Assembly: GCA_046538415.1 (NCBI GenBank)
Contig: JBKHIY010000013.1
Span: forward strand, 747 to 64,746
DNA length: 64,000 bases
Direction of reading: 5' to 3'
Source of the DNA: Candidatus Brocadiia bacterium
Lineage (GTDB): Bacteria > Planctomycetota > PUPC01 > DSUN01
Part shown: positions 13,567 through 48,087 of the stretch, in pieces
Layout: the number at the start of each line of letters is the position of its first letter
How positions within the stretch are numbered: the stretch's first letter is position 1
Made by a program: the position numbers and the translations under genes
The notes under the pieces: generated by a model
What the model was told of the DNA's origin: nothing
The model's input: only the letters and a program-made list of their open reading frames with translations
Database searches by the model: none

Positions 13567-14661
<1,095 letters not shown>

Positions 14662-14695: not shown

Positions 14696-17600
14696 TCATT
14701 GCTGAGCGGCGATGCGGACGATGCGGAAGCGCGGCGACTCGCCGGGCACCTCGCCCAGGATCCGAGGGGGCCGCACGGCGGGCCGGCGCGTCTCCTCCTC
14801 GACCACGGCGTAGAGCGAGCGGCCCAGGAGCTGGAGGGCGTGGAGCCGACCCTTGCCCACGGACACCTCCTGAGCCTCCTCGCCGGTCCGCGGATCCAGG
14901 GTCAGCACGGCCGCGGCCTGGGCGTCGACTACGTCGCTGCGGCTGAGGCCGAGGAAGAGCGCCTGGGGAGCAGCGCACCAGTCGTCCAGCGTGGTGTCCC
15001 GCTCGAGGGCGTACTCCCAGGCGACCTCGCCGCTACGGGCATCCAGGCGCACGAGGGTGGCCACGCCGGCTCGGCGCGTCGCTGCGTAGAGAGCCTGCGG
15101 GGTCAGGGCAGCCCGCTGGAGGCTCTCTCCGCGCTGGAGGGCCAGCGACCAGAGGGCCTCGCCGCTGTCCGCCCGGCGGCATTCCAGGACCTCCAGGCCG
15201 CGGCCGTCCTCCCCGTGGGCCACCAGGCGCTGCCCCGCGACCCACAGGCGGCGCGAAGCGAAGTTCTCCACCCGCCGGCTCCACACCAGCTCCTCCGCCG
15301 CGGCGTCGTAGCAGCCCAGGGTGGAGCCCATGGCATAGCACAGCCGGCCACGGCCCGCGGGAGCGAGCAGCGGCGGCGTGAGGGCCCGCCGGGCCTCGAC
15401 GCGGAAGAGGAGCCGCCCGTCGAAAGGGTTGAGGATCTCGACGGCCGAGGGCTGCGCGTAGGCCGCCACCAGCCCGTGCTCCCAGAGGGCCAGCCGGCGC
15501 AGCGATGGGCCGGCCAGGGGGCGGGTCCACAGCACGCGTCCCGTCTGGGGGTCGAGCGCGAAGAGCCGCTGACGCTCGTCGGCGATCGCCACGATGCCAG
15601 GGGCGCTGGCGGAGGCCCACGCCGCGCCGTCCGCCTCGAGGCCCCCGGCGCTCTGCTCCAGGGCGAACGACCAGGCCCGGGCCCCCCCCTCGACGCGGAT
15701 GGCGTCGAGGCGCTGCTCGCGCCGCACGAACACGCAGCCGCCGGCCAGCCCCACGAAGCTGTGGGGCTGGAGGTGGAACTCGCCGGCCTGGGTGGGCCGC
15801 TCGCCCAGCTCCAGATGTATCTTGTGCTCCTCGCCGTCCCGCAGGAAGCGCACGGCCACCCGGGTGCCCGGGCGGCGGGCCAGGCAGGTGTCGATCAGCT
15901 CGGTTACGTGGCGCACCGCTCGAGCGTCGAAGCTCACGATCACGTCGCCGTTGCGAAGCCCCGCCCGCGCCGCCGGCGTCCCGTGCACCACGCCTCGCAC
16001 GAGCACCCCGCCCTTGCGGCGATCGGCGTCCAGGATATGGATGCCGATCCACCCCGGGCGGTCGGCCCACCGCAGCGCCCCGTCGGCCGCCTCGCGGCAC
16101 TCGAAGGAGCGGCCCACCAGGAGGAAGAACTCGTCCGCCCCACCGCGGTCGCCCGCCACGTAGAGCTCCGACGAGCCGTATTCCTGGGGCACCCCCCACT
16201 GGACGGCCAGCGGAGGAGCCAGCGTAGGGGCCTCGGCGGGCCTCGGGGCGCGGAAATGCTCGGCCAGGAGGGCCTCGGGCTCGACCTTCGCCGAGGCCGC
16301 ACGTCCGTCCACCACGGCTCGCCACTCGGGGTGCTCGCGCCCCAGGGCGCGCAGGGCGCCGCGGGCCATGGCCCTGGCCCCTGCCCTGGCGTGGACCAGG
16401 GCCAGGCGGTAGAGGGCCTCGGGGGCGTGGGGCGAGGCGGGATAGTCGTGGGCCAGGCGGTGGAGCCACAGCTTGGCCTGGGCGAGCCGCCCGTCGCGCC
16501 GCGCCGCGGCCGCCAGGCCGAGGAGGGCCTGCGGGGCCGCGCGGCTGTTGGGATAGCGGCGCACAACCTCCTGAAGGCTCCGCTGACTGCCCTCGCGGAG
16601 CGCCGCGGCAGCTTCCTGCTCGAACCGCTCGTAGAGCCCCCTGCCGGCCCGGGCCAGCAGGTCGCCCAGCCCGCGGCGGGCCTCTTGCCAGTCGGGCCCG
16701 CGCGGCTCCGCGGCGGCGAGCACATGGTGGTAGGCCTCGATCGCTTCGTCCCATTGGCGAAGCGTGGTGCACAGGCGGGCCACGCGGAGGTGGAGGCACG
16801 GGGCCTCCAGGGGCTCGGCGTAGCGCAGGGCGGCCCGGGCGGCGTTGAGGGCCATGTCGTGCCTGCGGGCCTCCTGGTGGCGGCGCGAGAGGGCGGCGTA
16901 GGAGGCGGACAGGCGTCGGCGGACGTCGCCCAGCTCGCCGGCCGACAGGGCCTCGGGGTGCTGGGCGGCCAGCTCCAGGGTCTTCTCGAACGCGGCGGCG
17001 GCGGCCGCCAGGTCGCCTTCCCACTGGTGCTCCTTGGCCACGGCGAAGTGCACCCTGGGGTCCTGCGGGTTGCGGGCCAGCTCGCGCTCCAGGGCCGGGC
17101 GCGGCTCCAGGGGGGAGAAGACGTTGAGGGTGAAGGGGGTAGCCACAAACAACCTGCCCTCGGCGATCAACAGGTCGCCCGAGGACAGATCGGCGTCCCA
17201 CGTCGGCTCGTGGGTGCTCTTCCACTCGGCCCAGGACGTCTCGGCCAGCTTGTGCCCCGTCCTGGCGTCCAGGAACAGCAGCCCCCCGTCCACGGGCAGG
17301 TGGAGGACGTGGCCGGCGAGGGCCGGCCGGCCCACCACCTCGGCCGGCACGTGGGCCTCCCATTCGAGCTCGCCTTCGGCGCTCAGCGACGCGGCCCGGC
17401 GGCCCGCGAGGTAGACGCCGCCTCGGTCGGCCGCGGCCAGGTAGTGGTGGTCCTGACGTTCGGCCCGCCAGAGGAACCGCCCGGTGGCCAGGTCCAGGGC
17501 GTAGAGGAAGTCCGAGTCGACGGGCGTCACGTAGGCCACGCCGTCGGCCACGACAGGCGTGGGCGTTCGCCAGCCGTCGTGGAGGACGATGCGTCCGGTC

Positions 17601-19264
17601 CGCACCGCGGCTTCGTCCGCCTGGTCGTAGCGAAACAGCCAGGCCAGTCGCCCTGTGGCGGTCTCCGCCGCGGCCACGATGCCCCCGCCCGCGCAGGCGA
17701 CCACCAGCCCATCGCCGGACGCGGGCATTCCCTCGAACCACTGCTGGTGGAGGCCGATGCGGAAGAAGCGGCTGGCCGGACGGCTGCACACGAAGCGCCG
17801 CCACAGCAACCCGCCGTCGCGGGCACGCAGGGCGCACAGATGGTACTCGTGGCCCGTCTCCCCGGCGCGCAGGCCGACCATCAGGCGCTCCCCGCGGGGG
17901 AGTGGCGGCGACACGAACCAGCCGCTGGCCAGCGGCTTGGGCAGATGCTCCTCCGCACCATGCTGCCAGCGCAGGGCGCCTCGCGCCGCGCCCACCGCCA
18001 GCATCTCGCCCACCATCTCCTGGCCGCGCACCCGGTGGGAGGTGCGCAGCATGGGGAAGGAGCAGTAGACCCGCTGGCCCCGGGCCGAGCACCACCAGCG
18101 GCCCACGGAGGACGACGTGGCGGTGGAAAAGGGCTCGACCAGGCGCCCGCTCGTGGGCGGCCAGGGCAGCTCCCACAGCAGCTTCCCGGAGTCCAGGTCG
18201 CGAGCCACCACGCCCCCCCTGGAGGGGTAGATCACCCGCCCCTGTCCCACCGCGGGCAGCACCCACACGGGTGGGCGGTAGGGCCTCGCCGCACGGCGCG
18301 CGGCCTGGCGCCCGGAGCGGAAGGCCGCGGCCTGGGCCACGGCCTTGGCGTGGATCAGATCGGACCACAGCAGGGGGCCTGGGCGGACCGGGGTCGCCGC
18401 GTCGGGCCGCGCCGGGCAACCGCCCGGGTAGGCCCACTCGCTGGCTTCCGTGGCCAGACGGGGCAGGCGGTCCAAGACCTTGGCATACGCGGCGAGCGGG
18501 ATACGCCGGCCGGCCACCGCCAGCGTGGCCCCCGGGCCGGCCTCGTTCGCCGCTCGGCGGAGCAGCGCCCGGGCGGCCGCGGGACGGCCCAGGCGCTGGA
18601 GGCAGGTGGCCAGCTTGGCCGCCGTGGCCACCAGGTCGGTATCCGTATCCGAGCACAGCCGGAGCAGGCGCCGCCAGGCGCGGAGGGCCTGGCCCGCCTT
18701 CCCCCGGGCGAGCCACGCCGTGGCCAGGCGGTCGAGCGCGTCGTCGCCCCAGGAGCTGAGCAGAAAGCGCTGCGCCACGAGCCTGAGCGCGGCGAGGTCG
18801 CCGCTGGCCACCGCGGCGTGGTAGAGCTCCGCCGCCCGCCCGTCCACCGCCGCCCGGTAGACCCGGCGCCCCTCGGGGGGCAGGGCGGCCAGCCGCTCTT
18901 CGACGAAGCTGCGGATAGGCACGTAGCGGCGAGGCTCGGGATGGCACAGCTCGTGGGGAGCCTCGTCCACCAGGCGCTGGTAGAGCTCGATGGCCTGGCT
19001 CCATCGCTCGTCCTGCTCCAGCCGACGGGCCCGCTCCAGGGCCGCGTTGGGCCGGGAATGCGGCGAGTAGTCGGCCGTCACCGCCCCTTCGGGCTCGGCC
19101 AGGCTGGCGCCCGAGGAGGGCCGGGGGGCCGTCGCCGCCAGGCTCCGGCGAAGAGCGGCTGCCAGGCGCCCTCGGGCCGTGGGCTCCGGCTCCGCGCCCC
19201 AGCTCGCCGTCGCTGCCAACAACAAGACCAGCGCGTTGACCGCTGGACGCATGCAGAAACTCAC
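14696..19264 (-). CDS. Giant secreted multidomain protein with TPR-like regions, two PQQ-like beta-propellers and a PDZ domain
   Basis: 1522 aa. The N-terminal signal peptide is [22 protein letters not shown]. Repeated motifs such as ALDxxTGxxLW and AxDAxTGxxxW resemble BamB/PQQ blades. A PDZ-like segment reads [33 protein letters not shown] central TPR region resembles YbgF. Its stop lies 35 bp from the moxR start. Confidence 0.7.
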
Positions 19265-20339: not shown

Positions 20340-21458
20340 ATGGCACGGGACCTCAATGCCACGGTCGAGGACTACCGGCGGGGCCTCGCCGCGCAGAATC
20401 GCGAGATCGAGCGCCTCCAGGCCATGGTGCGCGAGCTGGAGGAGCAGGCCCACGGCATCGGCTCGCGGCGCATCGAGAAGTCGCTGCGCCGGGCCCGGCA
20501 CGACCTGCGGCGCGCCCAGGCCGAGCGCGCCGACCTCCAGCGCGAGTACGCACGCTTCCGCCTCCGCGAGTTCATCGGCGACGACCCGGCCCACATCGAC
20601 ACCCAGCTTTTCGACGAGGAGCTGCTCCGCGTCACGTCCGCTCGCCTCGCCCGTCGCCGCTCAGGAGTGCTCTACGAGGGGCGGATCTCGGCCGACTCCT
20701 TCCGCACCGCCCTGCTCGCCGACCTGCCGCTCGACCAGCTGATCGAGAACGAGCGCTCGGAGCGGAAGGCCGGGGTGATCCTCGATCTCCTCGACGAGCA
20801 CACCTCCACCAAGGCCATTCTCCGCCACTGGGCGGCACTCGTCCAGTCCGACGACTACGTCTGCGGCGTCCTCCACCGCGCCGAGGACGCCACGGCTCGC
20901 TTCGAGGAGCATCTGGCCAACTTCACGCGGGGCCTGGAGAACCTGCGGATCGACTACGAGCTGCGCCAGCGGAAGGTCGACGACCTGCTCTTCTCCTTCG
21001 ACGACGGCCGCCCCGCGCTGCTGGCCGCCAACTACTGGGACAACATCGAGCGGCTGTGCGCCAGCCAGGTCCAGCAGCTCTTCGGCCAGTTCCTTGGCCT
21101 GGACCGGGCCCGCGAGGAGCTGCGGGTCCTCCGCGAGGAACTGAACGAGGAGCTGAGGCAGTTCATGAGGGCCTTCGTGCCCCGCTACCTGGCCTACGCC
21201 GCCAGCCAAGGCCGCCGCGGCCCCCGCCGAATGCGCCTGGGATGGCTCGCCACCCGCCGCCTGTGCCGCTACGTGCTCGACGAGGTGGACCGCACGGACC
21301 TCCTCCTGCCCCAGGGCGGCGGCATGGAGATCCCCCTGCCCCGTGTGCCCCGGAACATCGCGGCCTTCCGCAAGCTCAAGTCGTATCGCCGCTTCAAGGA
21401 ATCGGGCGAGGCCCAGGCCGACGCGGAGAGCCCCACGACGGCCCAGGGGACACGCTGA
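20340..21458 (+). CDS. Hypothetical coiled-coil protein
   Basis: 372 aa. An N-terminal heptad-rich segment (EIERLQAMVRELEEQ...) is followed by an Arg/Leu-rich C-terminal part. No family was recognised. It lies 40 bp downstream of rnc on the same strand. Confidence 0.5.
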   Translation: MARDLNATVEDYRRGLAAQNREIERLQAMVRELEEQAHGIGSRRIEKSLRRARHDLRRAQAERADLQREYARFRLREFIGDDPAHIDTQLFDEELLRVTSARLARRRSGVLYEGRISADSFRTALLADLPLDQLIENERSERKAGVILDLLDEHTSTKAILRHWAALVQSDDYVCGVLHRAEDATARFEEHLANFTRGLENLRIDYELRQRKVDDLLFSFDDGRPALLAANYWDNIERLCASQVQQLFGQFLGLDRAREELRVLREELNEELRQFMRAFVPRYLAYAASQGRRGPRRMRLGWLATRRLCRYVLDEVDRTDLLLPQGGGMEIPLPRVPRNIAAFRKLKSYRRFKESGEAQADAESPTTAQGTR

Positions 21459-24327: not shown

Positions 24328-25314
24328 CTAGTTTCTCAACTGCCAGAGCAGCCCACCCTCTTTGCCCACGCCGCGGCGGAGGTCGATCTCGCGGTTGGTC
24401 TTGAACTCGACGTGGCTGTCGAAGAAGAGCACGCTCATCCCGCCGTTGTGCTCCTCGCCGTGGTTGATGGGGTCCTGGGTGTCGTCGCTGCCCATGGGCA
24501 TGTTGGGTGGGAACATGTCGGGGATGGCCCGGGCCACCCGCGTACCGCCCGCTTCGGTCATGCTGTAGTAGTGCATGCCCGCGTAGCTGACGGTGTGGGG
24601 GCCGAAGCGCCAGCGGTCGGCGCGCTCGGCTCCCAGGTCGCGGCCGTTGTGGTTCGTGTCGGACGTGCTGGGGCAGAGGAAAACGCCGGGGTCGGGCACC
24701 ACGCTGGTCCAGTAGAGGCTGGCCAGCCACTCGGCGCCGTTGTAGTTGTCGGCCCGCGCGCCCCGTCCCAGGGGGCAGGGGTAGAAGCGGTTGTCGCCCA
24801 GCTCGGTGAGGTAGGTGGCCATCCCCTTGGCCATCTGGTTGAGGTTGTTGCGGCAGCGGATGCGTCGGGCCTCTTCCCGCGCCCGGGCCAGGGCCGGGAG
24901 CATCATGAGGCTGAGGACGATGGAGCCGAAGAGGGCTACGGCCACCACACCGCAGGGCACGCCCACGGCGATGGCGCTGACCAGGGCATTGCGGTCCGCC
25001 CGGGGGTAGGCCAGGCGCATGCCGGCGAGCGCTTGCGGGGGCGTGGCCTCCCCGCGGACCACCGCGGCGAAGGGCTCCACCTGCCCCATGGGCTGCCAGT
25101 CGGCCATGCCCTCCCGCCAGCAGGGGGTGGTCTCGTCGACCTGCCCTCGCCACAGGCGGTCGAGCAGCCGGTCCGTGGAAAAAGGTCCCGAGGGCCGGTC
25201 GCCGGCTCCTCGGACGTACCACTGGTCGGGCGGGGTGCTCACCTTCCTGCCTCCTGCGCTCGCGGTCCGTGCGGAACGGGTCAGTGGCAGTCGTAGCCCG
25301 TGAAGACGGGGCAA
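24328..25314 (-). CDS. DUF1559 (H-X9-DG) domain protein with an N-terminal GYF/DUF4339-like domain and a single TM
   Basis: 328 aa with a TTG start. The N-terminal segment DQWYVRGAGDRPSGPFSTDRLLDRLWRGQVDETTPCWREGMADWQPMG resembles DUF4339. A TM helix follows, and then about 190 aa that are near-identical to the downstream pseudopilin paralog, ending in the [20 protein letters not shown] motif. Confidence 0.7.
   Translation of the reverse strand: MPRLHGLRLPLTRSARTASAGGRKVSTPPDQWYVRGAGDRPSGPFSTDRLLDRLWRGQVDETTPCWREGMADWQPMGQVEPFAAVVRGEATPPQALAGMRLAYPRADRNALVSAIAVGVPCGVVAVALFGSIVLSLMMLPALARAREEARRIRCRNNLNQMAKGMATYLTELGDNRFYPCPLGRGARADNYNGAEWLASLYWTSVVPDPGVFLCPSTSDTNHNGRDLGAERADRWRFGPHTVSYAGMHYYSMTEAGGTRVARAIPDMFPPNMPMGSDDTQDPINHGEEHNGGMSVLFFDSHVEFKTNREIDLRRGVGKEGGLLWQLRN
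24331..24909. repeat. Tandem-duplication copy A, the 3' part of the first DUF1559 gene
   Basis: It encodes about 190 aa that are more than 85% identical to copy B. Antisense-frame ORFs 24362..24568 and 25336..25698 also translate near-identically, which shows nucleotide-level similarity. Confidence 0.6.
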
Positions 25315-25380
25315 CTGTAGCGCGACGGGGGGAAGGTGTCAACTGAGAAGCGGCGGAGGAGCGGGCGGCGTCGGGGCGGG

Positions 25381-25424
25381 TTAAAAGCCGAGCAGCCCGC
25401 CTTGGGAGGCGGGCTGCTCGGGGC
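25381..25424 (-). terminator. Intrinsic terminator after the prepilin/DUF1559 gene
   Basis: On the minus strand the 15-bp GC stem reads GCCGAGCAGCCCGCC-tcccaa-GGCGGGCTGCTCGGC and is followed by TTTTAA. Confidence 0.6.
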
Positions 25425-25442
25425 GACACTGGATGGTCTGCC

Positions 25443-26111
25443 TCAGTTGCTGAGCTGCCAGAGCAGCGACTTGTCGGCCCCACCGCTGTCGGCGCCCACG
25501 CCTCGCAGCAGGTCAATGTCGGTATTGGTCCTGAATTCGACGTGGCTGTCGAAGAACAGGACGCTCATACCGCCGTTGTTCTCCTCGCCGTGGTTGATGG
25601 GGTCTTGGGTGTCGTCGCTACCCATCGGCATGTTGGGCGGGAAGTTGTCGGGGATGGCCCGGGCCACCCGCGTACCGCCCGCTTCGGTCATGCTGTAGTA
25701 GTGCATGCCCGCATAGCTGACGGTACCTTCGTCGAAGGTGGTAGCGGCGGTTTCCGAGCCGATCCGGAGCCCGTCCTCGTTCGTGTCGGGCGAACTCGGG
25801 CAGATGAAAACGCCGGGGTCGGGCACCACCCTGGTCCAATAGAGACTGGCCAGCCATTCGGCTCCGTTGTAGCTGTCGCCGCTTGCCGACCGCGTCCGAC
25901 CGAGCGGACACGGATAGAAGCGGTTGTCGCCCAGCTCGGTCAGGTATGTGGCCATACCCTTGGCGAGCTGGTTGAGGTTGTTACGACAACGGATCCGTCT
26001 GGCCTCCTCACGAGCCCTGGCCAAGGCAGGCAGAAGCATGCCCGCCAGAATTGCGATAATGGCAATGACGACCAAGAGCTCGATGAGGGTAAAGCCGCGC
26101 CTTTTCTTCAT
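25443..26111 (-). CDS. Prepilin-type N-terminal cleavage/methylation domain protein with DUF1559 (type II secretion pseudopilin-like, H-X9-DG)
   Basis: 222 aa. The class III signal is MKKRRG|[20 protein letters not shown], with G at -1, F at +1 and E at +5. The DUF1559 body carries the [20 protein letters not shown] motif. Confidence 0.85.
25446..26033. repeat. Tandem-duplication copy B, the second DUF1559 gene body
   Basis: See copy A. Boundaries are approximate. Confidence 0.6.
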
Positions 26112-26171
26112 CTTGTCTCACCCCCTTTCTGGGTTGAAAAGGCTATAGGCTGTGACCTGACACCACCCTAA

Positions 26172-26199
26172 ATTATACGCCGGCGACGCGCGGTGTCAA
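26172..26199 (-). promoter_or_regulatory. Sigma70-consensus promoter for the prepilin/DUF1559 gene
   Basis: The minus strand reads gatttgc-TTGACA-ccgcgcgtcgccggcg(16)-TATAAT. Both hexamers are perfect. An A-rich tract lies upstream. The Shine-Dalgarno AAAGGGGGTGAGA lies before the ATG at 26111. Confidence 0.55.
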
Positions 26200-26237
26200 G
26201 CAAATCCCACAAAAACTCGCGGCCCCACACAGCCCCC

Positions 26238-27530
26238 TCACAGCTCCTCCAGGGAACGGAAGACCATGCCAGTGCGAGGCTTGGGCCAGAAATAGGTCGA
26301 CTTCGGCGGCATCCGCTGTCCCGCGTTCACCACGGCCATCAGCTCCTCGGCCCGTACCCCGGGCAGGAGGGCCGCCATCCGGGCCGCCCCCGCGTCCACC
26401 TGGGCGGTGGCCCGCGCCGCGCACGCCTCGTAGCTGACCTCCGGCTCGCGTTCCGTAAATGCAGCGCTCACAAAGCCATGCGTGAAAACGGCAGCGGGAA
26501 GGCGGCGGACGGGCGAGCCGCTCGGGTAGGGGGACTCGGCGAGCGCCGCCTCGTCGCGCAGCTCGAGGAGGGTGTAGCCCGGCCCCTGGCCGCCGTGGAG
26601 CGCGAAGGCGGCCCGCCCCGCCCGGTCGGCCAGGGCCGCCAGAGCATCGTCCACGCTCGCCTCGGCCAGCCGCTGCACGTCGAACCATGCTGCCGCGCGG
26701 TCCACCACCTCGTCCGCCGTCGGTTCGCCCGCCCAGCGGAGGACGCGGTGGGTGGGGCGGATGACCAGCCCGGGGTCCGCGGAGGACATGCAGGCGGCGA
26801 GGACGTAGTCGCAGGGCAGCTGGCCCTCCGGCGCGGGATGGCCGGCGCGCTGGAGGCGTCGGTAGGCCAGAGCCGTTTCGTAGCGGTGGTGTCCGTCCGC
26901 GATATAGAGGGGCAGGGGGGCGAGCGCATCGGCCAGCGCGGCCCTGCGGTCGGCCGACCACAGGGGGCGCAGCTCGTGGTCGATGCCCCGCTCGTCGGCG
27001 AAGACGGCGAGGGGCTCGGCCTGGGGGCCCGCCAGGAGGTCTCGCACCCGCGCCTCCGGGTCGGGGAAGAAGGCCAGGATGGGGCTGAGGTTCGCGGGGC
27101 AGGCTCTCATCAGGCGCAAGCGGTCGGCCTTCGGCCCGGGCATGGTATTCTCGTGGGGCAGCACGCTGCCCTCTTCGTACGGCTCGAGGCGCAGGGCGCC
27201 CATCACCAGCGTGCGCTGGCGGCGCTCGCCCTGGTGGTTGAACCGCTGGACGTAGAGGTAGAAGGCGGGCTCGGGATCGGGGACCAGGATGCCCTGGCGG
27301 AGCCAGGCGCGGTAGAGCTCCTTGGCCCGCTCGTACCAGTCGTCGGCCGGCGGGGCTTCTGCGCGGCGGCGCTCCCCGAGGATCAGGCGCACCGCGTTGT
27401 AGGGGCTTCGCCGGCACAGGGCGACGTGGTCCTCCGGCCCAATGACGTCGTAGGGCGGCGAGACCAGATCGGCGAGGGGACCGGCGTCGCTAGCGTAGCG
27501 AATGCCGCGAAAGGGCTTCAGCTCTGGCAT
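26238..27530 (-). CDS. DUF1015 family protein
   Basis: 430 aa starting MPELKPFRGIRYA…. A conserved ADGHHRYETA motif is present. The longer ORF in the track is Arg/Pro-rich before this ATG and is an artefact. The start lies inside the 3' end of the upstream STT3 gene, with a 13-nt overlap. Confidence 0.6.
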   Translation of the reverse strand: MPELKPFRGIRYASDAGPLADLVSPPYDVIGPEDHVALCRRSPYNAVRLILGERRRAEAPPADDWYERAKELYRAWLRQGILVPDPEPAFYLYVQRFNHQGERRQRTLVMGALRLEPYEEGSVLPHENTMPGPKADRLRLMRACPANLSPILAFFPDPEARVRDLLAGPQAEPLAVFADERGIDHELRPLWSADRRAALADALAPLPLYIADGHHRYETALAYRRLQRAGHPAPEGQLPCDYVLAACMSSADPGLVIRPTHRVLRWAGEPTADEVVDRAAAWFDVQRLAEASVDDALAALADRAGRAAFALHGGQGPGYTLLELRDEAALAESPYPSGSPVRRLPAAVFTHGFVSAAFTEREPEVSYEACAARATAQVDAGAARMAALLPGVRAEELMAVVNAGQRMPPKSTYFWPKPRTGMVFRSLEEL

Positions 27531-29560
27531 CCGTGGGCCTGCCTCGTCTGTGGGAGTCTCGGGAGAACGTGGGCCTCGCCCGTCGCCTCGGCCGGGCCAG
27601 GGGGCACCAGCTCGAAGAGCCGCGTGGAGAAGTCGCGGCCCAGACGGCGGCTGTGGTGGACCGTCTCGTGGACCAGGCGGAACTGGCGCAGCGGCCGGCG
27701 CGTGCCCGGGGCCAGCGGCTCGGGGCGGGCCTGGAGCGCGCCGGCCATCACGGCCGCCTCGGCCCCCGTGCGGGGGTCGAGCCCCAGGTCGGCGAGAATG
27801 AGGGGCAGGAAGAAGTCGGTGGACAGCACGTAGCGGACCCCCAACCGTCGGCACAGCGCCGCGGCTTGCGCCTCCGAGCGGGCCCCGAAGAAGGCCCTCG
27901 CCCGCTCCAGCCCCAGACGGTGCTGCGGGGTGTTGCCGAAGGGGCACGCGACGTTGGCTCGCTGCCCCAGGTAGGTGAGCCAGTGCCCGTAGTGCCAGTA
28001 GGCCATCACCGCGTACGGGGGCCGCGTATCGAAGTCCGAGATGTCCCCCCCGGGCGGGGCCTCGGCACGCAGCCACTCCAGGGCCGGCAGCACCCGCTGA
28101 AGCTCGTAGCGGGGAAGGCCCAGGCGCGGGCGCCATCGCTCGACCGGCGCCCCGGCGGCGACCGCAGTCACCGCCACCAGCGACACGCGGCAGAGCACCC
28201 GCGTGCGCGGCGCCCCCAGGGCCGCCGCGCGCCAGAGCCCCGCGGCCAGCGCCGCCAGGCACAGCGCCAGGGGCGCGGCCAGGTGCCCTGCGAAGCGGCG
28301 CTGGGCCACGGCCAGGAGGCAGGTGCCCGCCGCCCAGACGGCCACCAGCCAGTCGCCCTCGGCCGCCCGCCGCCCCGCGGCCCGCCACACCACCAGGAGC
28401 AGACCGGCGGGGAAGGCCACCGCGGCCCACGTGAGCCGATTCACCGCGCCGTCCAGCCCGGTGGCGAACAGGCCCCTCGCCTCGCCCGCCGTGGCCACCA
28501 CCACGTCCGTCCGTCGGCCCATGAACCCGATGCCGCCCCCGAGCGCCGACCAGCCCCCGGGAACGGCCCACACGGCCGCCGCAGCCAGCGCCGCGTGCGA
28601 GCCCACCACCCAGGCCAGCTTCGCGCCCCGGCTCAGCCGACCGCTCCGCAATACCGCCCAGAGCAGCACCGGGCTCGCCCCACAGGCCAGCGCCGCCGCC
28701 CCATGGAAGCCGGAAAGGAACGCGAACGAGGCCCCCCAGGGCCGCGCCGCCGGCGAAAGACCCAGGAGGAACACGACCACCAGGGCCGCGCCGCCCAGCG
28801 CCGCGCTCGCCGCACCCCAGCCACGCGGTACCGGCCGCTGCAACGCGAGCGCGGTTACCGCACGCACCCAAAGGCTCCCCGCGGCCAGGAGCACGAAGAC
28901 CACCGAGCCGGGCCACAGCCACAACGAGCCGCCCAGCAGGAGACCCGCCAGCCCGCTCCAGGCGAGCCGTCTTCGCCGGCCCGGCTGCCGCCGCGCCGCG
29001 AGCCAGCAGCCCAGGCCAGCCGTCACCGCTGCGACCACCGCCGCGTCGTGGTCTACCTTCCCCACCGCCGAGGCCGCGATGCACGTCGGAAGCAGGGCCA
29101 CCAGGGCCGCCGCCACACAGCCCACCGACCGACCGCGCCACAGGGAGCCGAACCAGTACGTGGCCACCACGACCAGGCAGCCCAGCACGGGCATGGCCCA
29201 CGCACACACGCGCTCGACGTCCTGCGACCAGGGGCGGGCCCCGGCCACCCGCCCCGCGGCGGCGAGGACGAGGTCGAAGCCTGCCGGCCAGTAGATGTGG
29301 GCTCCCTCGGGGTAGTTCACGTAGGCGTCGAAGGCGGGTACCGTGGGGAAATCGGCGACCGCCTTCTGGACGCGTCGCAGGTGGTAGTAGGGGTCGTTGC
29401 CCGGCAGGAGCACGCGCCCGTCGACGAATACGAAGTGAGCGTCGCGAGCGCGGGCGAGGAAGGCTCCGGCCAGCACCAGCACGAGGGCCGCCCCACAGGC
29501 CCACCTGCGGCGGCCTGCCCACGGCTTGCGGCGTTCGTGCTCATCCTCGGGCAGCGCCAT
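27518..29560 (-). CDS. STT3/AglB/PglB-family oligosaccharyltransferase (GT-C)
   Basis: 680 aa with about 13 TM helices. The N-terminal loop reads GNDPYYHLRRV. The periplasmic C-terminal domain carries AYWHYGHWLTYLGQRANVACPFGNTPQH, which matches the WWDYG motif region. It is followed by SEAQAAALCRRLGVRYVLSTDFF, which resembles the eukaryotic/archaeal STT3 '…MRELDVDYVLVIFGG' segment. Confidence 0.55.
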   Translation of the reverse strand: MALPEDEHERRKPWAGRRRWACGAALVLVLAGAFLARARDAHFVFVDGRVLLPGNDPYYHLRRVQKAVADFPTVPAFDAYVNYPEGAHIYWPAGFDLVLAAAGRVAGARPWSQDVERVCAWAMPVLGCLVVVATYWFGSLWRGRSVGCVAAALVALLPTCIAASAVGKVDHDAAVVAAVTAGLGCWLAARRQPGRRRRLAWSGLAGLLLGGSLWLWPGSVVFVLLAAGSLWVRAVTALALQRPVPRGWGAASAALGGAALVVVFLLGLSPAARPWGASFAFLSGFHGAAALACGASPVLLWAVLRSGRLSRGAKLAWVVGSHAALAAAAVWAVPGGWSALGGGIGFMGRRTDVVVATAGEARGLFATGLDGAVNRLTWAAVAFPAGLLLVVWRAAGRRAAEGDWLVAVWAAGTCLLAVAQRRFAGHLAAPLALCLAALAAGLWRAAALGAPRTRVLCRVSLVAVTAVAAGAPVERWRPRLGLPRYELQRVLPALEWLRAEAPPGGDISDFDTRPPYAVMAYWHYGHWLTYLGQRANVACPFGNTPQHRLGLERARAFFGARSEAQAAALCRRLGVRYVLSTDFFLPLILADLGLDPRTGAEAAVMAGALQARPEPLAPGTRRPLRQFRLVHETVHHSRRLGRDFSTRLFELVPPGPAEATGEAHVLPRLPQTRQAHGCQS

Positions 29561-29577
29561 GTGGGACACGCGGACGC

Positions 29578-30612
29578 CTAGCGGGAGCCTGCCTGGTCGA
29601 CCTGGAGCCGCTCGAAGCCGCTGGAGCGCGCCGTAGCCAGCTCCCCGTCGCGGCGGTACATGATGAGCATCTCGACCTCCTCGCGCTTTTCGGCGAAGGC
29701 CAGCGCCTGCTCGACCCCCATCACGCTCGCCGCCGTGGCGTAGGCGTCGGCGGTCATCGGGTCGGCCGCCACCACGGTGACGCTGGTCATGTCCTCCACG
29801 GGACGGCCGGTGCGAGGGTCCAGGATGTGGGAGTAGCGCCGCCCGTCGACCATTCCGAACTGCTCGTAGTCGCCCGAGGTGGCCACGGCGCGGTCGCGCA
29901 GGAGGATGGGCCGGGGCAGGATCTTGCCTCGCCGGCTGGGGTCGCGGACGCCGATGAGCCAGCCCTCGCGGCCCGGCGGGGCGCCCACGCCGTAGATGTC
30001 GCCGCCGGCGTCCACCAGAGCGGCGCGAATGCCATGGGCCTGGAGGGCTTCGATCGCCTGGGCCACGGCGTAGCCCTTGCCGATGCCGCTGAGCTCGAGC
30101 CTCTGGCCCGCCTTGGCCAGCCGCACGCGGGGCGCGTCGGGAGCGCACTCCACCGACCGGTAGTCCACGAGAGCCCTGGCCGCCGCGATCTCTTCGTCGC
30201 CGGGGCGCTTGCCCGTGCGCCAGCTGCGCCGCCACAGCGCCACCACGGGGCCCACCGTGGGGTCGAAGGCGCCGCGGGTCTCCTCGGCGATCTCCACGGC
30301 CCTCCGCAGGGGCACCCACAGATGCTCGCTCACGGCCATGGGCGGCGACCCGGCGGCGCGGTTGAGCTTCGAGACGTCGCTGTCCTCCCGCCAGGTGCTG
30401 GTGGCCGCCTCCACCTCCTCGACGCGCTGGAACGCGGCCTCGATGGCCCGCAGCCCTGCCTCCCGCCCGGGCGCGTAGACGGTCACCGCCATGTAGGTGC
30501 CCATGGGCCTGCGCGTGCGGGACAGGCGCACCAGGTCGGCCTCCCCGGCGCCGCTCCGCGCGGCGGCGAGGACCAGCAGGCACGCGACGGGCTGGATGCG
30601 CGCTGCTCGCAT
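29578..30612 (-). CDS. apbE: FAD:protein FMN transferase
   Basis: 344 aa. A signal or lipoprotein-like N-terminus is followed by MGTYMAVTVYA, GIGKGYAVAQAIEAL and a TSGDYEQF motif typical of ApbE. Confidence 0.85.
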   Translation of the reverse strand: MRAARIQPVACLLVLAAARSGAGEADLVRLSRTRRPMGTYMAVTVYAPGREAGLRAIEAAFQRVEEVEAATSTWREDSDVSKLNRAAGSPPMAVSEHLWVPLRRAVEIAEETRGAFDPTVGPVVALWRRSWRTGKRPGDEEIAAARALVDYRSVECAPDAPRVRLAKAGQRLELSGIGKGYAVAQAIEALQAHGIRAALVDAGGDIYGVGAPPGREGWLIGVRDPSRRGKILPRPILLRDRAVATSGDYEQFGMVDGRRYSHILDPRTGRPVEDMTSVTVVAADPMTADAYATAASVMGVEQALAFAEKREEVEMLIMYRRDGELATARSSGFERLQVDQAGSR

Positions 30613-30726
30613 CAGGGCACACTCCCATCTCCCCCTGTCATTCTAGCAGAATGGGCACGGGGGAAAAACCATGGCATGGGCCTCGCCGTATGTCCTCACG
30701 CCGGTCCCTGGGCGAGGGCAGCACCA

Positions 30727-43633: not shown

Positions 43634-45094
43634 ATGGGTGGACTGCGAACGAGGAACCGAAGGGCCTTCGTCGCCGTCGAGGTGGCCGCCGTGGTGGCCG
43701 TGATCGCGCTGCTGCTGGCCATGGGCTTCATGCTCTATCGCGGCATGCGGCTCGCCGCCCGGGCCTCCCTGGCCGAGAGCAACCTCAAGCAGGTCTCCAC
43801 GGGGATGGAGCTCTACTTCCGCAAGTACAACAGCTATCCCCCCGAGGGCAGCGACCTGACGGCCGAGCTGGCTCCCTTCGTGACCGACCCCGACGCCTTC
43901 GCCAACCCCCTCAAGGAGGAGCAGAGCCCGGGCGAGACCCTCAACGCCCTCTACAAGGAGCCCTCCCTGGAGCAGCTCGACAGCCCCGACCACTACATCA
44001 CCTCCCTGGTCTCCGAGGACGGCCGCACCGTGGTGGTGCTGAAGACCGGCGGTAAGGTCGAGCGCCGCAACGACTTGCGGTTCGACCCCGACGCGCCGCC
44101 CGGCGACCTGGTGGCCATGCTCGACCCGGAAACGACCACCAGCTCGGGCGATGGCGACGACGACGTGGTGATCCTTGCCGCGCCCGACGAGCCCACCGAT
44201 ACCAGCTCGCCCGATGACCATAGCAACGAGGTCGTCCCCGGGGTGATCAAGGTCCTCGACGACGTGGTCGTGGACTTCGAGGTCATCGAGACCGCGCTCA
44301 GCTCCGGCACCACGGACCTGGACGTCTTCGTGGAGGGCAAGTTCGGCAAGGCCATCACCTACGTAGTGGTCCAGGACGGGGTGAGCCGCGTGAAGTTCGA
44401 GGACGCCCCGGAGGGCCTGGGCGAGGACGACGCCCAGGAGACCGACCGCTTCGTGATGAGCGTCCAGGGCACCACCGACTCGGTCACCGTCTCCACCAAG
44501 GCGGCTACGGGCAAGGCCACTACCACCCTGCCCGCCGAGGTGGGCGCCACGGCCAAGGACGAGCTGGGCTTCGTGATCACCGTCGAGAGCATCTCCGACG
44601 ATAGTGTCTACACCCTCTCGGTGAGCAGCGAGAGCAACGAGCACGCCCTCAGCCACGTGGAGTTCGACTTCGGCGAAGGCACGGAAGTCGAGGTGACCGA
44701 GGACGTTACGCGGATGAGCGGCGAGCCGCTCTTCGGCGGCGCCGACGTGGACGGCGGCGAGTTCGACTCCAAGACCCTCGCCAAGGACCAGTCCTTCGCC
44801 CTCATCGGCATCGCCGGCACCGCCACCTACGCCAGCGACGTCCACACCTCCCAGGTACTCACCCTGCGCAACGGCGATCAGGCGTTCGAGGACCCCGCGA
44901 CGAGCAACATCCCCATCACCGGCACCCCGCTGGAGGGCCTCATCGACCCCGTCACCGGCACGGTCACCATCGAGAACGACCAGGTGCTGTTCCTCTTCGA
45001 GCTGGGCACCATCGACCCCAGCAGCAGCGCCTTCGACCTCGACGACCTCGTCGTCCTCGCCACCCTCAAGAAGACCGCCACCAGCGAGCAGTAG
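43634..45094 (+). CDS. Cassette protein Y1, a large acidic type IV pilin-like protein
   Basis: 486 aa, preceded by the Shine-Dalgarno AAGGAG. The class III signal MGGLRTRNRRA|FVAVEVAAVVAVIALLLAMGF has F at +1 and E at +5. A pilin-like helix follows. Then come Asp/Glu/Thr/Ser-rich linkers and two beta-rich modules, A (KFEDAPEGLGEDDAQETD…HALSHVEFDFGEG) and B (VLTLRNGD…DLVVLATLKK). Confidence 0.6.
   Translation: MGGLRTRNRRAFVAVEVAAVVAVIALLLAMGFMLYRGMRLAARASLAESNLKQVSTGMELYFRKYNSYPPEGSDLTAELAPFVTDPDAFANPLKEEQSPGETLNALYKEPSLEQLDSPDHYITSLVSEDGRTVVVLKTGGKVERRNDLRFDPDAPPGDLVAMLDPETTTSSGDGDDDVVILAAPDEPTDTSSPDDHSNEVVPGVIKVLDDVVVDFEVIETALSSGTTDLDVFVEGKFGKAITYVVVQDGVSRVKFEDAPEGLGEDDAQETDRFVMSVQGTTDSVTVSTKAATGKATTTLPAEVGATAKDELGFVITVESISDDSVYTLSVSSESNEHALSHVEFDFGEGTEVEVTEDVTRMSGEPLFGGADVDGGEFDSKTLAKDQSFALIGIAGTATYASDVHTSQVLTLRNGDQAFEDPATSNIPITGTPLEGLIDPVTGTVTIENDQVLFLFELGTIDPSSSAFDLDDLVVLATLKKTATSEQ
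43664..43873. repeat. Conserved pilin-helix coding segment, copy 1
   Basis: It is about 85% nt-identical to 46207..46416, with FVAVEVAAVVAVIALLL…NLKQVSTGMELYFR. Boundaries are approximate. Confidence 0.5.
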
Positions 45095-46176: not shown

Positions 46177-48087
46177 ATGAGCGGGTCCCGACGCACGAAG
46201 AAGACGGGCTTCGTGGCCGTAGAGGTGGCCGCCGTGGTGGCGGTGATCGCGCTGCTCCTGGCCCTGGGCTTCATGCTCTATCGAGGCATGCGACTGGCGG
46301 CCCACGCCTCCGTCGCCGAGAACAACCTCAAGCAGGTCTCCACCGGCATGGAGCTCTACTTCCGCCAGTACAGCAGCTATCCGCCGGAGGATAGCGACCT
46401 GACCGTCGAGCTGGCGCCCTTCGTCGAGAATCCGGAAGTCTTCGAAAACCCCCTGCTGGACGAAGAAGCTCCCGGCGAGACCATCAACAAGCTCTACCGC
46501 CAGCCCACCCTCGAGGAGCTCGACCGCCCCGACCAGTACATCACCGCCATGGTCTCCGATAACGGGAAGACCGCGGTGATCCTCAAGACCAACAGCAAGG
46601 TGGAACGGGAGGACGACCTGCTCTTCGACCCCGACGCCCCCGCCGAAGAGCTCCTGGCCGTCCTCGACCCCGACCTGGGCGAGGAGGAGGACGCGCCCGA
46701 CGCGCCCGCAGAGCCCGTAGAGGAGGAGGCGGGCTTCGACTTCCACGACGACGGGGAGGTCGAGACCAGGACCTGCTCCGACCTCCGCATCTTCATCGTC
46801 GGCTCCCAATTCGGCTACGAGGACGGGAGCCTGGTGGACGTCGTGACCGAGGCCGACCTGGGGGACGGCTGGTTCGACCTCTTCAACGGCCAGCCCGTGC
46901 GGGCTGGCGACGAGTTCACCCGCGACAGCGTGCCCGCAGGCACCCGGGTGGTGGTGAAGGGCGAGATCGCCGGGGCCTACGAGCGCTGGCTGTGGAGCTA
47001 CTACGGCTACCCCCTCTCCTACAGGTCCACCGACGGCACGGGCCAGGTGCTCACCCTCCAGCGGGGCGACACCCCGGTCTACTTCGAGCCCGGGTTCCCC
47101 TGCCAGGCGCCCGTGGGCGAGCTGCTCGCCCCCTACGTGGACCCCCAGACAGGCACCGTGACCATCGCCGAGAACGAGGCGTTGTGGCTGTGGGACTTCA
47201 ATCCCCTGGAGACCGAGTACGGCATCGACTTCCAGGACCTCATCGTCCTGGCCACGGCCACCGTCGCCGAGCGCGAGTGTGAAGAAGACGACGAGGGCGG
47301 CGGCTCGGAGCCGCCTTCCGAGGACCCTGAGCCCGTGCTCGCCATCGCCTCGGACGGCGTGAGCGAAGGCGAGATCGAGGACACCACGTCGAGCGTCGAG
47401 TACGTGGTCGAGCGCGACGAGGACAACACCATCAAGTTCGAGGACGCTCCCGTGGGCCTCGGCGAGGACGGCGCCCACCAGACCGACGAGTTCGTCATCT
47501 CCGTCGAGGGCGACGTGACCAGCGTGAAGGTCAAGACCAAGGCGGCCACGGGCACGGCGACCAACGATGTGCCCCTCGGTGGCAGCGTGACCGACACCCT
47601 GGGCTTCCGGACCAGCCTCGAGCCCCTGGGCGGCGGCCAGTACAAGCTCTCGGTCACCAGCGTGAGCAACCGCCACGCCCTCAGCCACGTGGAATTCGAA
47701 TTCGAGGGCGGCGAGGTCGTCGGCCCCGATGGCCCCTACGCGGCCACCCGACGCGAGGAGGCCACGGTTCCCAGTAGCTATACCGCCACCGCGGTGATCA
47801 CCAACACCGCCTCGGATCCGCAGGACGCCGCCGCCGACGTGCAGCTCGGCATCCAAGTGGTCGAGGGCGCGAGCCACGTCGAGGCCATCCAGTGCCAGAC
47901 CGACGTCGGCTCCGTGCCCAGCGGCGAGAGCCATTCCGTGGACATCACCGTTACCACGAAGCCGAGCTGGCAGACCGCCTTCGGCGAGCACATCCGCGTG
48001 CGAGTGACCATCGAGAACGAGGCGAACGACCCCGACGTCAACGAGGGCAAGAGCGTGACCTTCACCTTCGACGGGCCGGAGGGCTAG
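46177..48087 (+). CDS. Cassette protein Y2, a large acidic type IV pilin-like protein
   Basis: 636 aa, preceded by the Shine-Dalgarno GGAGAGGAGAG. The class III signal MSGSRRTKKTG|FVAVEV… is the canonical G/F…E at +5. The pilin helix is about 85% nt-identical to Y1. Module order is B' (VLTLQRGD…DLIVLATATV), an acidic linker, A' (KFEDAPVGLGEDGAHQTD…HALSHVEFEFEGG), and then an extra C-terminal beta domain. Confidence 0.6.
   Translation: MSGSRRTKKTGFVAVEVAAVVAVIALLLALGFMLYRGMRLAAHASVAENNLKQVSTGMELYFRQYSSYPPEDSDLTVELAPFVENPEVFENPLLDEEAPGETINKLYRQPTLEELDRPDQYITAMVSDNGKTAVILKTNSKVEREDDLLFDPDAPAEELLAVLDPDLGEEEDAPDAPAEPVEEEAGFDFHDDGEVETRTCSDLRIFIVGSQFGYEDGSLVDVVTEADLGDGWFDLFNGQPVRAGDEFTRDSVPAGTRVVVKGEIAGAYERWLWSYYGYPLSYRSTDGTGQVLTLQRGDTPVYFEPGFPCQAPVGELLAPYVDPQTGTVTIAENEALWLWDFNPLETEYGIDFQDLIVLATATVAERECEEDDEGGGSEPPSEDPEPVLAIASDGVSEGEIEDTTSSVEYVVERDEDNTIKFEDAPVGLGEDGAHQTDEFVISVEGDVTSVKVKTKAATGTATNDVPLGGSVTDTLGFRTSLEPLGGGQYKLSVTSVSNRHALSHVEFEFEGGEVVGPDGPYAATRREEATVPSSYTATAVITNTASDPQDAAADVQLGIQVVEGASHVEAIQCQTDVGSVPSGESHSVDITVTTKPSWQTAFGEHIRVRVTIENEANDPDVNEGKSVTFTFDGPEG
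46207..46416. repeat. Conserved pilin-helix coding segment, copy 2
   Basis: See copy 1. Confidence 0.5.

Follow-up and report, generated by a model that had tools for sequence, protein, structure and literature searches.

The 64-kb window considered here (the whole stretch of DNA that was analysed) belongs to a metagenome-assembled genome (MAG) of a Candidatus Brocadiia bacterium, with a genome G+C content of 71%. At positions 24328-26111 it carries two adjacent paralogous open reading frames (ORFs), both found on the minus strand in the ORF list: gene B (26111..25443), which is transcribed first, and gene A (25242..24328), which is transcribed second. The pair had been described as tandem DUF1559 paralogs in the initial annotation, in line with the DUF1559 start motif present in both. 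The gene then named as the canonical pseudopilin deserves that name, but it is gene B, and it is not the downstream one. Gene A departs from this canonical pattern: it very likely encodes a single-pass inner-membrane protein made of a GYF_2 domain, one long transmembrane (TM) helix and a pseudopilin head. The main elements of the two genes are as follows.

25443..26111, minus strand: gene B, 222 aa, a canonical prepilin-type pseudopilin of a short DUF1559-like family, starting MKKRRG/FTLIELLVV, with Glu at +5.
24328..25242, minus strand: gene A, 304 aa, GTG start, with a GYF_2 domain, a linker, a long hydrophobic helix and a pseudopilin body.
25075..25221 (aa 8-56), minus strand: GYF_2 domain of gene A, predicted to be cytoplasmic, identified by Pfam, AlphaFold2 (AF2) and Foldseek.
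24889..24990 (aa 85-118), minus strand: hydrophobic segment of gene A, ALVSAIAVGVPCGVVAVALFGSIVLSLMMLPALA, standing in place of the pilin alpha1-N helix, with no Gly-1, Phe+1 or Glu+5.
24331..24900 (aa 115-304), minus strand: pseudopilin body of gene A, with an alpha1-C helix, a globular head and a C-terminal H-X9-DS motif.

The N-terminus of gene B matches Pfam N_methyl (PF07963) with an E-value of 9.5e-11, as well as TIGR02532 and the GspG N-terminus, and its product is deposited at NCBI as MFP4056087.1, 'type II secretion system protein'. In both genes the body opens with the DUF1559/SBP_bac_10 family signature LLPAL-AREEARR-x-C-x-NNL-Q, which scores above the gathering threshold (PF07596, cutoff 23.3 bits). 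Gene B reaches 27.5 bits and gene A 26.0 bits, matching only the start of the profile (approximately positions 2-27 of 268), through aa 144-168 of a 328-aa form in the case of gene A. Relatives of this body are annotated as 'prepilin-type processing-associated H-X9-DG protein'. The C-terminal H-X9-DS motif of gene A scores 16.4 bits against TIGR04294, for a cutoff of 19; its His is not conserved in the family and is an Asn in gene B. DUF1559 is a large paralogous family, with 68 paralogs in Planctopirus limnophila, two of which are essential (PMC10632474). Unlike typical DUF1559 proteins, genes A and B have a short body (about 190 aa, versus a 268-position profile), and gene A is devoid of the N_methyl leader.

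The GYF/DUF4339-like nature of the gene A N-terminus, proposed initially, has been confirmed in several ways. Gene A matches GYF_2 (PF14237, DUF4339) with an E-value of 8.4e-14 and 51.5 bits (cutoff 25.8), and its N-terminal fragment alone gives an E-value of 1.7e-14. Seven residues (W8, G19, P20, W42, G45, W49 and F58) are invariant across 46 GYF sequences, gene A included. The AF2 model of aa 1-60, obtained with an alignment of GYF relatives, shows the beta-beta-alpha-beta-beta order, with predicted local distance difference test (pLDDT) values of 86-96. Its best Foldseek match in the PDB is 7z3c, the solution structure of the Myxococcus GltJ GYF domain (31% identity, probability 1.00), and ranks 1-16 are all GYF domains except ranks 2, 10 and 11, which are chains of TOC-TIC/TIC complexes.

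The single TM helix of the initial annotation is also recovered: the hydropathy profile of gene A contains a sole hydrophobic run, of 34 residues, compared with 25 in gene B. No prepilin signal is associated with it, since gene A shows no PF07963 or TIGR02532 match, and neither G-F-T-L-x-E nor G-x-x-x-x-E within aa 1-114. Every feature recognised by prepilin peptidase is missing. A GVPC sequence is present in gene A, with a Pro at -1, and it is not a lipobox. The AF2 model of the gene A body, built from the family alignment, consists of a continuous helix over aa 97-147 followed by a beta-rich head with strands between aa 221 and 282 (pLDDT >90), and the colinearity of the two genes starts at the conserved Pro of LLPALARA. 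When the family profile was compared with the PDB, solved pilins and GspG were matched over the alpha1 helix only (e.g. 9egp, 8pfb, 5wda), and no solved homologue of the gene A head was found there by sequence or by Foldseek.

The choice of the gene A start codon involves several signals located around and between the two genes.

26172..26199, minus strand: predicted promoter-like site of gene B, TTGACA-16-TATAAT, with 12/12 consensus matches.
25383..25421, minus strand: hairpin (hairpin proper at 25388-25421) and probable intrinsic terminator, with 15 G+C-rich base pairs followed by CUUUU, 22 nt past the gene B stop.
25314..25342, minus strand: predicted promoter-like site of gene A, TTGACA-17-TACAGT, the -10 hexamer of which overlaps TTG 25314.
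25250..25255, minus strand: Shine-Dalgarno sequence AGGAGG, as read from the sequence, 7 nt 5' of GTG 25242.
25018..25020, minus strand: internal ATG (Met75), leaving a remainder of 230 aa, a probable ancestral start with no Shine-Dalgarno sequence 5-12 nt upstream.

The start of gene A had first been placed at TTG 25314, which gives the 328-aa form. This codon lies inside the predicted -10 box, so that it would be absent from the transcript, and the 24 codons which separate it from the GTG lack a coding signature: their G+C content at third codon positions (GC3) is 0.58, compared with 0.90 in the GYF region, 0.88 in the linker and TM segment and 0.94 in the body. TTG was thus rejected in favour of GTG 25242 with its AGGAGG. 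The N-terminus read from this GTG (MSTPPDQWYVRG; MSTPPDQWYV) fits the consensus MSxxxxSWYIPGEG of 45 close GYF relatives, and the resulting product is identical to the NCBI entry of gene A, MFP4056086.1 (P0001), a 304-aa 'DUF4339 domain-containing protein'. Both this start codon and the domain architecture are assigned with high confidence. The GYF region is very probably translated, because it shows codon periodicity, follows a Shine-Dalgarno sequence, matches the family N-terminus and retains all seven invariant residues.

The separate promoters described initially are consistent with the sigma-70-like sites predicted before each gene, two being found for 0.2 expected. The element between the genes had been called a strong intrinsic terminator (25381-25424). 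Its hairpin is well supported, with a folding energy of -40.5 kcal/mol for a 76-nt segment and a z-score of -5.5, but its tail CUUUUAAC has four U only, and a terminator scan requiring at least five U made no call. A hairpin found at the same position in the related contig L086 is 85% identical over 33 nt, with CUCUUUUGG as its tail. The hairpin between genes B and A is probably a terminator, not of the textbook form.

The evolutionary relationship between the two genes is more intricate than a simple copy. Their bodies had been given as more than 85% identical; alignment gives 76% protein identity over 213 aa (BLASTP), or 79.7% over 197 aa (tblastn), and 78% nucleotide identity (codon alignment), and only aa 220-281 reach 95%. 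Regional divergence was measured by the Nei-Gojobori method (NG86) as synonymous (dS) and nonsynonymous (dN) substitution rates for successive segments in gene A numbering. The dS value is 1.26 over aa 115-165 (dN 0.05), 0.48 over aa 166-219, 0.29 over aa 220-281 (dN 0.027) and 0.81 over aa 282-304. The segment of low divergence corresponds to the following tracts.

24400..24585 (aa 220-281), minus strand: gene-conversion tract in gene A, about 186 nt, including a 67-nt run identical to gene B at 24514-24582.
25530..25715 (aa 133-194), minus strand: matching gene-conversion tract in gene B, with the identical run at 25644-25712.

At the 78% background identity, the chance probability of a 67-nt identical run is about 7e-6; third-position identity inside the tract is 0.75-0.95. 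A search for homologues of the body, covering 5.8 billion proteins, returned 352 matches, of which the best 120 were inspected. Among these 120 family members, genes A and B are mutual best matches over aa 220-281, at 95%, and only there; the runner-up is P0004 at 85%, all others being at 77% or less. Outside the tract, gene A is 80.3% identical to a leaderless protein from another sample (P0003), versus 75.6% to gene B (bootstrap 87%), and 13 of the 15 nearest neighbours of gene B are canonical GFTLIE proteins. Codon usage follows the same division. In a comparison of the window with three related loci, GC3 is 0.80-0.86 in canonical copies and 0.93-0.96 in leaderless ones; gene A stands at 0.94, and gene B at 0.73-0.82 in its 5' half, rising up to 0.89 within the shared tract. 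Since dS is saturated in the conserved body and low only in the tract, genes A and B are most likely old paralogs, partly homogenised by gene conversion, which recently swapped a segment of about 186 nt, and not fresh duplicates.

P0004 (MFP4056451.1) lies on another contig and is, judging from its accession number, a third paralog of the same MAG. It has a degenerate leader, MRRRG/TTLKE, and a Gly-rich insertion of about 30 aa between alpha1-N and AAAREEARR. Its 85% identity to genes A and B in the tract suggests a genome-wide concerted evolution of that head segment.

Gene B itself has a G+C content of 0.62 and a GC3 of 0.81, together with a perfect TTGACA-16-TATAAT, despite the 71% G+C genome (window 25443-26237). 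The canonical GFTLIE copies of the window and of the L001, L004 and L086 arrays are consistently poorer in G+C than their genome and than their leaderless neighbours. This low G+C content of the canonical copy and the perfect gene B promoter may reflect a very high expression of that copy.

The family to which both bodies belong is a short (approximately 210-260 aa) DUF1559-like family represented by more than 350 metagenome clusters. Its N-termini are diverse: 46 of the 120 members have an exact GFTLIE, 33 a G-x-x-x-x-[E/D] variant, and the rest are degenerate or of non-prepilin type. Among the latter, a leaderless 'long-TM' class of 230-249 aa recurs (P0003, P0006, P0007, P0012, P0013, P0020, P0022 and P0028), with a short charged stretch followed by a hydrophobic run of about 34 aa. 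Counted from Met75, gene A has 230 aa, for 230-232 aa in P0006, P0007, P0020, P0022 and P0003. The neighbourhood is conserved as well. Four related loci (L001-L004) are syntenic with the window, with RTC, SIS, ApbE, STT3/AglB and DUF1015 genes and then an array of 2-7 family genes, followed on its 3' side by convergent genes for a tetratricopeptide repeat (TPR) protein and a GDSL lipase, then by a gene without assigned function and the RNase III gene. In L001-L003 the array ends with P0022, a leaderless protein of the long-TM type. In related contigs, the leaderless gene which comes after the canonical copy, terminator and promoter encodes 231-232 aa and has no GYF domain. In L086 the order is a canonical gene of 216 aa, the conserved hairpin, a TTGACC-17-TATAAT site, a leader of about 240 nt and then the leaderless P0390, a 232-aa protein which is 71.5% identical to gene A from Met75 and has a motif in common with it. 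No relic of a GYF domain was found 5' of the leaderless orthologs in L001, L004 and L085-L089, where in-frame stop codons are present.

These comparisons favour, with somewhat better than even odds, an order of events in which leader loss came first, then the GYF graft, then conversion. Gene A would descend from an already leaderless long-TM lineage, located after the canonical copy in related genomes. A GYF module of 74 codons would have been grafted in frame before the old start (Met75), at the place where relatives carry the 5' leader of about 240 nt, and the head tract of about 186 nt would have been homogenised later with gene B. The leader was probably lost before the arrival of the GYF domain, because leaderless genes without GYF hold the same slot, gene A is nearest to P0003, its GC3 is that of the leaderless class, and its remainder has the 230-aa length.

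Some features of these leaderless relatives deserve mention in their own right. In seven of the eight long-TM members, a lipobox-like AVGC/GG motif lies some 23-26 residues into the protein and precedes a second hydrophobic stretch; the examples are P0022 (L001 10001-10696), two genes of L004 (9429-10178 and 10207-10923), P0006, P0007, P0020 and P0028. The prepilin signal may have been swapped for a lipoprotein (signal peptidase II) signal in these proteins, and cleavage at AVGC/GG would leave a mature N-terminus of about the length of a processed pilin. The leader of about 240 nt found in L086 (940-1186) contains a direct repeat, GGTAGCACAGGCTTCCAGCCTGTG, present twice about 45 nt apart, a candidate binding site or regulatory RNA element.

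Four other scenarios can be considered for gene A. The first, possible but rather unlikely, is an en-bloc swap by which about 113 aa (GYF, linker and TM) came from a gene of GYF-TM-X design and were joined at LPALARA; the functional outcome would be the same. The TM of the nearest GYF relatives indeed lies at the same distance from the GYF domain, and phmmer alignments are colinear up to query aa 100-109 (P0136 5-105, P0148 6-108, P0167 1-107, P0234 2-109). The failure of a long-TM profile to match the gene A segment, described below, points in the same direction. However, hydrophobic segments align through composition; Met75 and the exact 230-aa remainder fit the leaderless relatives; and the hydrophobic run of 34 aa is similar to that of the long-TM class, compared with approximately 20-23 aa in the GYF-TM-X relatives.

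The second scenario is closest to the initial annotation, which saw a duplication followed by domain replacement: gene A would be a recent tandem duplicate of gene B, whose leader and alpha1-N helix were directly swapped for GYF and TM. The arrangement itself stands, with GYF and TM where gene B has its leader. The youth of the pair does not. The two genes are adjacent, on the same strand and 76% identical over 213 aa, with the 67-nt identical run inside a 95% identical stretch, and identity begins sharply at the conserved M(L/M) segment. Against this, dS varies more than fourfold along the gene and reaches 1.26 where conservation is highest. Moreover, outside aa 220-281 homologues of other organisms are at least as close to the two genes as these are to one another, genes A and B fall in different codon-usage classes held across four loci, and leaderless orthologs without GYF occupy the same slot after the canonical copy. 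A recent duplication is thus improbable.

Still less probable is a young chimera, selectively neutral or in decay, or one created by the assembly of the MAG, without specific function. It would be in line with the singleton architecture within the family, with the truncated state of P0265, another GYF-DUF1559 entry, and with the MAG source. But the frame of gene A is unbroken by any frameshift or stop, codon usage is uniform over the junction (GC3 0.91, 0.93 and 0.94), a dN/dS of about 0.04 in aa 115-165 shows purifying selection on the conserved body, the conversion tract is less than 100% identical and hence not a collapsed repeat, and independent full-length fusions exist (P0138, P0132, P0173). 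Finally, a start at Met75 (the internal Met of AGMRLAYP), once put forward as the observation that would leave the GYF region as an untranslated relic ahead of an ordinary leaderless 230-aa paralog, is very improbable: this Met aligns with the start of leaderless relatives, gives their exact length and lies where they have a long untranslated leader, but the frame upstream of it is open and continuous (GC3 0.90-0.91), the seven GYF residues are intact (Pfam E 8e-14), and the predicted promoter and the AGGAGG both precede GTG, with none of the latter kind 5-12 nt before the Met75 ATG.

The preferred reading of gene A, as a GYF-anchored protein of leaderless descent, also has implications in terms of topology. 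The first 60 residues or so, with the GYF_2 adaptor, would remain in the cytoplasm, the hydrophobic helix of about 34 residues would span the membrane and run on into the pilin-type alpha1-C helix from the Pro of LLPALARA, and the globular head would be exposed in the periplasm. This N-in/C-out orientation is suggested by the lack of a signal peptide at the N-terminus, by Arg81 and Arg84 ahead of the helix, and by the periplasmic location of the homologous canonical heads in pilin biology. With no class III signal (Gly-1, Phe+1, Glu+5) and a folded domain on the cytoplasmic side, neither cleavage nor methylation by prepilin peptidase is expected, in agreement with the initial annotation, and the product would not be extractable from the membrane as a normal fibre subunit.

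From there, a function can be suggested by analogy, although it is doubtful at present: gene A might be a membrane-retained pseudopilin-like protein tied to a cytoplasmic partner. Its head could meet the periplasmic partners of gene B, or gene B itself, and the GYF domain would probably bind a partner in the cytoplasm, likely one rich in proline, as in the GltJ-AglZ pair. The head could serve as an anchor or terminator for B-type subunits, or it could bind a ligand and act as a receptor, in the sense put forward for other GYF-membrane proteins.

The comparison with GltJ is informative in this respect. According to Attia et al. 2024 (PMC11135422), the usual place of a GYF domain in bacterial proteins is the N-terminus, ahead of a membrane-associated receptor module, and that of GltJ binds a proline-rich sequence of AglZ. 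GltJ, a Myxococcus xanthus protein with a ZnR-linker-GYF part in the cytoplasm, a TM and a periplasmic region, resembles gene A in its N-terminal GYF, its membrane span and its extracytoplasmic module. Gene A is not a GltJ ortholog, however: NF033761 gives 27.2 bits for a cutoff of 450, over the GYF region only, and no ZnR is present. Unlike that of GltJ, its periplasmic part is an unrelated pseudopilin head, and no gliding genes lie nearby. Gene A also resembles type IV pilins and pseudopilins of the type II secretion system (T2SS), such as GspG and PilA/PilE, by its modelled long N-terminal helix and globular head; gene B has in addition the full class III signal. Gene A differs from them by the predicted cytoplasmic part of 74 aa in front and the lack of this signal. 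Modular type IV pilins, such as PilB of Streptococcus sanguinis (PMC8179133), similarly combine a pilin scaffold with an extra domain; in them, the module is at the exposed C-terminal end and the class III signal is kept. In gene A, the extra domain is N-terminal, predicted to be cytoplasmic, and takes the place of the signal. Further parallels are the leaderless proteins P0003/P0390, P0006, P0007, P0020, P0022, P0028, P0272, P0350 and P0326, which also have their head behind a non-prepilin N-terminus, P0003/P0390 and P0022 (L001-L003) sharing the genomic slot after the canonical copy. Their N-terminus is either short and charged with a long TM, or a signal peptide with a domain of about 300 aa, and none has a GYF domain.

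The architecture of gene A has counterparts in other proteins. An exhaustive HMMER search with the N-terminal 114 aa of gene A retrieved 1,468 GYF proteins, of which the best 150 were inspected. In this set, 90 proteins carry just one GYF, at the N-terminus, with exactly one TM after it in 77 of them, so GYF-TM-X is the standard design of GYF relatives. Some of these relatives combine it with pseudopilin features: P0138, with a full DUF1559 ending in H-X9-DG (E 8e-44), P0265, a truncated remnant with the DUF1559 start motif, and P0132 and P0173, with T2SSG (GspG). They share with gene A the three-part design and the GYF subfamily (45-56% identity; CWREGMxxWxPxxxVEPFA). Unlike it, they have heads of other classes (full-length DUF1559, GspG), none from the short family. 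These different head classes indicate that GYF grafts arose independently, on at least three kinds of heads. The initial proposal to look for the fusion elsewhere was thus productive for DUF1559 and GspG heads, and not for the short family itself, where PF14237 is joined to such a body only in P0001, the window's own protein, among the best 120 of 352 matches. No published description of GYF-TM-pseudopilin architectures was found in the literature searched. Gene A is nevertheless already deposited and domain-annotated, the GYF-pseudopilin architecture being rare but recurrent in public data, where the leaderless-pseudopilin theme is already found.

A broader possibility is that GYF-anchored pseudopilins form a recurrent class of non-processed 'base' subunits in bacteria of the Planctomycetes-Verrucomicrobia-Chlamydiae (PVC) group, which is speculative and unlikely. 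Head and alpha1-C helix would then co-assemble with canonical pseudopilins (here gene B, gene conversion maintaining compatibility), and the uncleavable TM and GYF would link either the proximal pseudopilus end or a binding head in the periplasm to a proline-rich partner in the cytoplasm. If true, this would amount to anchoring, control of length or termination, or outside-in signalling, a mechanism not described for type IV filament systems.

Other observations were made on these relatives. P0265 (L090 8001-8684) breaks into unrelated sequence about 50 residues past the DUF1559 start motif, with the next gene 243 nt further on, and seems to be what is left of a similar fusion after decay. Most DUF1559 relatives of P0138 are proteins of about 550 aa, such as P0272, P0326 and P0350 (Thermopirellula anaerolimosa) and about 100 further matches. 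This clade has a signal peptide, an unannotated domain of about 300 aa, a pilin-like helix (GVLVALLLPAVQAAREAARR) and a DUF1559 body, with no N_methyl motif. P0271 has two DUF1559 bodies in tandem. Leaderless DUF1559 proteins are common, as judged from these sequences. Verrucomicrobiota matches reaching gene A aa 130-150 were set aside as small GYF proteins with several TM segments, and not pseudopilin fusions, sharing the peptide WREGMADW. In this phylum (L005-L084, e.g. L058 9995-10490, Luteolibacter sp. Populi), small GYF_2 proteins of 150-230 aa, fused to Cys/Gly-rich segments with two TMs, form tandem clusters, often two or three in a row.

Several points weigh against the reading of gene A proposed here. 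The prepilin peptidase and pilus or T2SS assembly genes are all lacking within the window, which also holds no second GYF gene and no further copy of the family. The positive-inside rule is uninformative for the topology, the conserved segment after the helix being basic as well. The preference of gene A for P0003 over gene B is modest at the protein level (80% vs 76%), and the match in position breaks down in L004, whose array ends with a gene that is not of the long-TM type. A profile of the eight long-TM N-termini scores -2.0 bits against gene A aa 75-113, with 460 of 500 shuffles doing as well or better; the homology of the gene A TM to the long-TM class thus rests on its length, position and neighbours. 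A resemblance first considered in its favour, 'VGCGG versus VPCGV', was discarded on the same ground, the profile being no better than shuffles. Lastly, the fusion is a singleton in its own family, and it could be young and of little consequence. Architecture, evolution and function being blended into a single figure, the proposed reading as a whole is given a probability of about 0.5.

Other genes of the window may be mentioned. An STT3/AglB-type oligosaccharyltransferase (27518-30628, minus strand) and a DUF1015 protein (26238-27530, minus strand) lie directly 5' of the pseudopilin array in every syntenic locus. N-glycosylation of the pseudopilins by this neighbouring enzyme was considered and dropped on sequon counts: N-X-S/T is absent from genes A and B and present in only 22 of the 120 family members. 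On the 3' side, a 372-aa protein (20340-21458, plus strand) is conserved in the syntenic loci, with the GDSL lipase on one side and RNase III on the other. It is without a Pfam match although well-formed as a coding sequence (GC3 0.94-0.96), as are the genes at 416-1468 (minus strand), 43682-45094 and 46213-48087 (both plus strand). A MoxR-type AAA ATPase (13567-14661, minus strand) adjoins a 1,461-aa protein (14696-19081, minus strand) in which PQQ/BamB-like beta-propeller repeats occur together with TPR repeats and a PDZ domain.

In Planctomycetota, few paralog families are as large as those of the DUF1559-type pseudopilins. Gene A suggests that a pseudopilin head is usable as a fixed, membrane-anchored periplasmic module, besides its use as a fibre subunit. 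Because GYF-TM grafts occurred independently on DUF1559 and GspG heads, and because whole DUF1559 clades are leaderless, these data suggest that the 'pilin-like' annotation overstates the number of proteins which are processed and polymerised. In the pair described here, the similarity first taken for a recent duplication comes from a gene-conversion tract, and the correct start of gene A is the GTG. Genes A and B form a natural matched set, one copy being canonical, with a consensus promoter, and the other anchored and sharing a converted head segment with it, for asking what the leader contributes and what a bacterial GYF domain binds.

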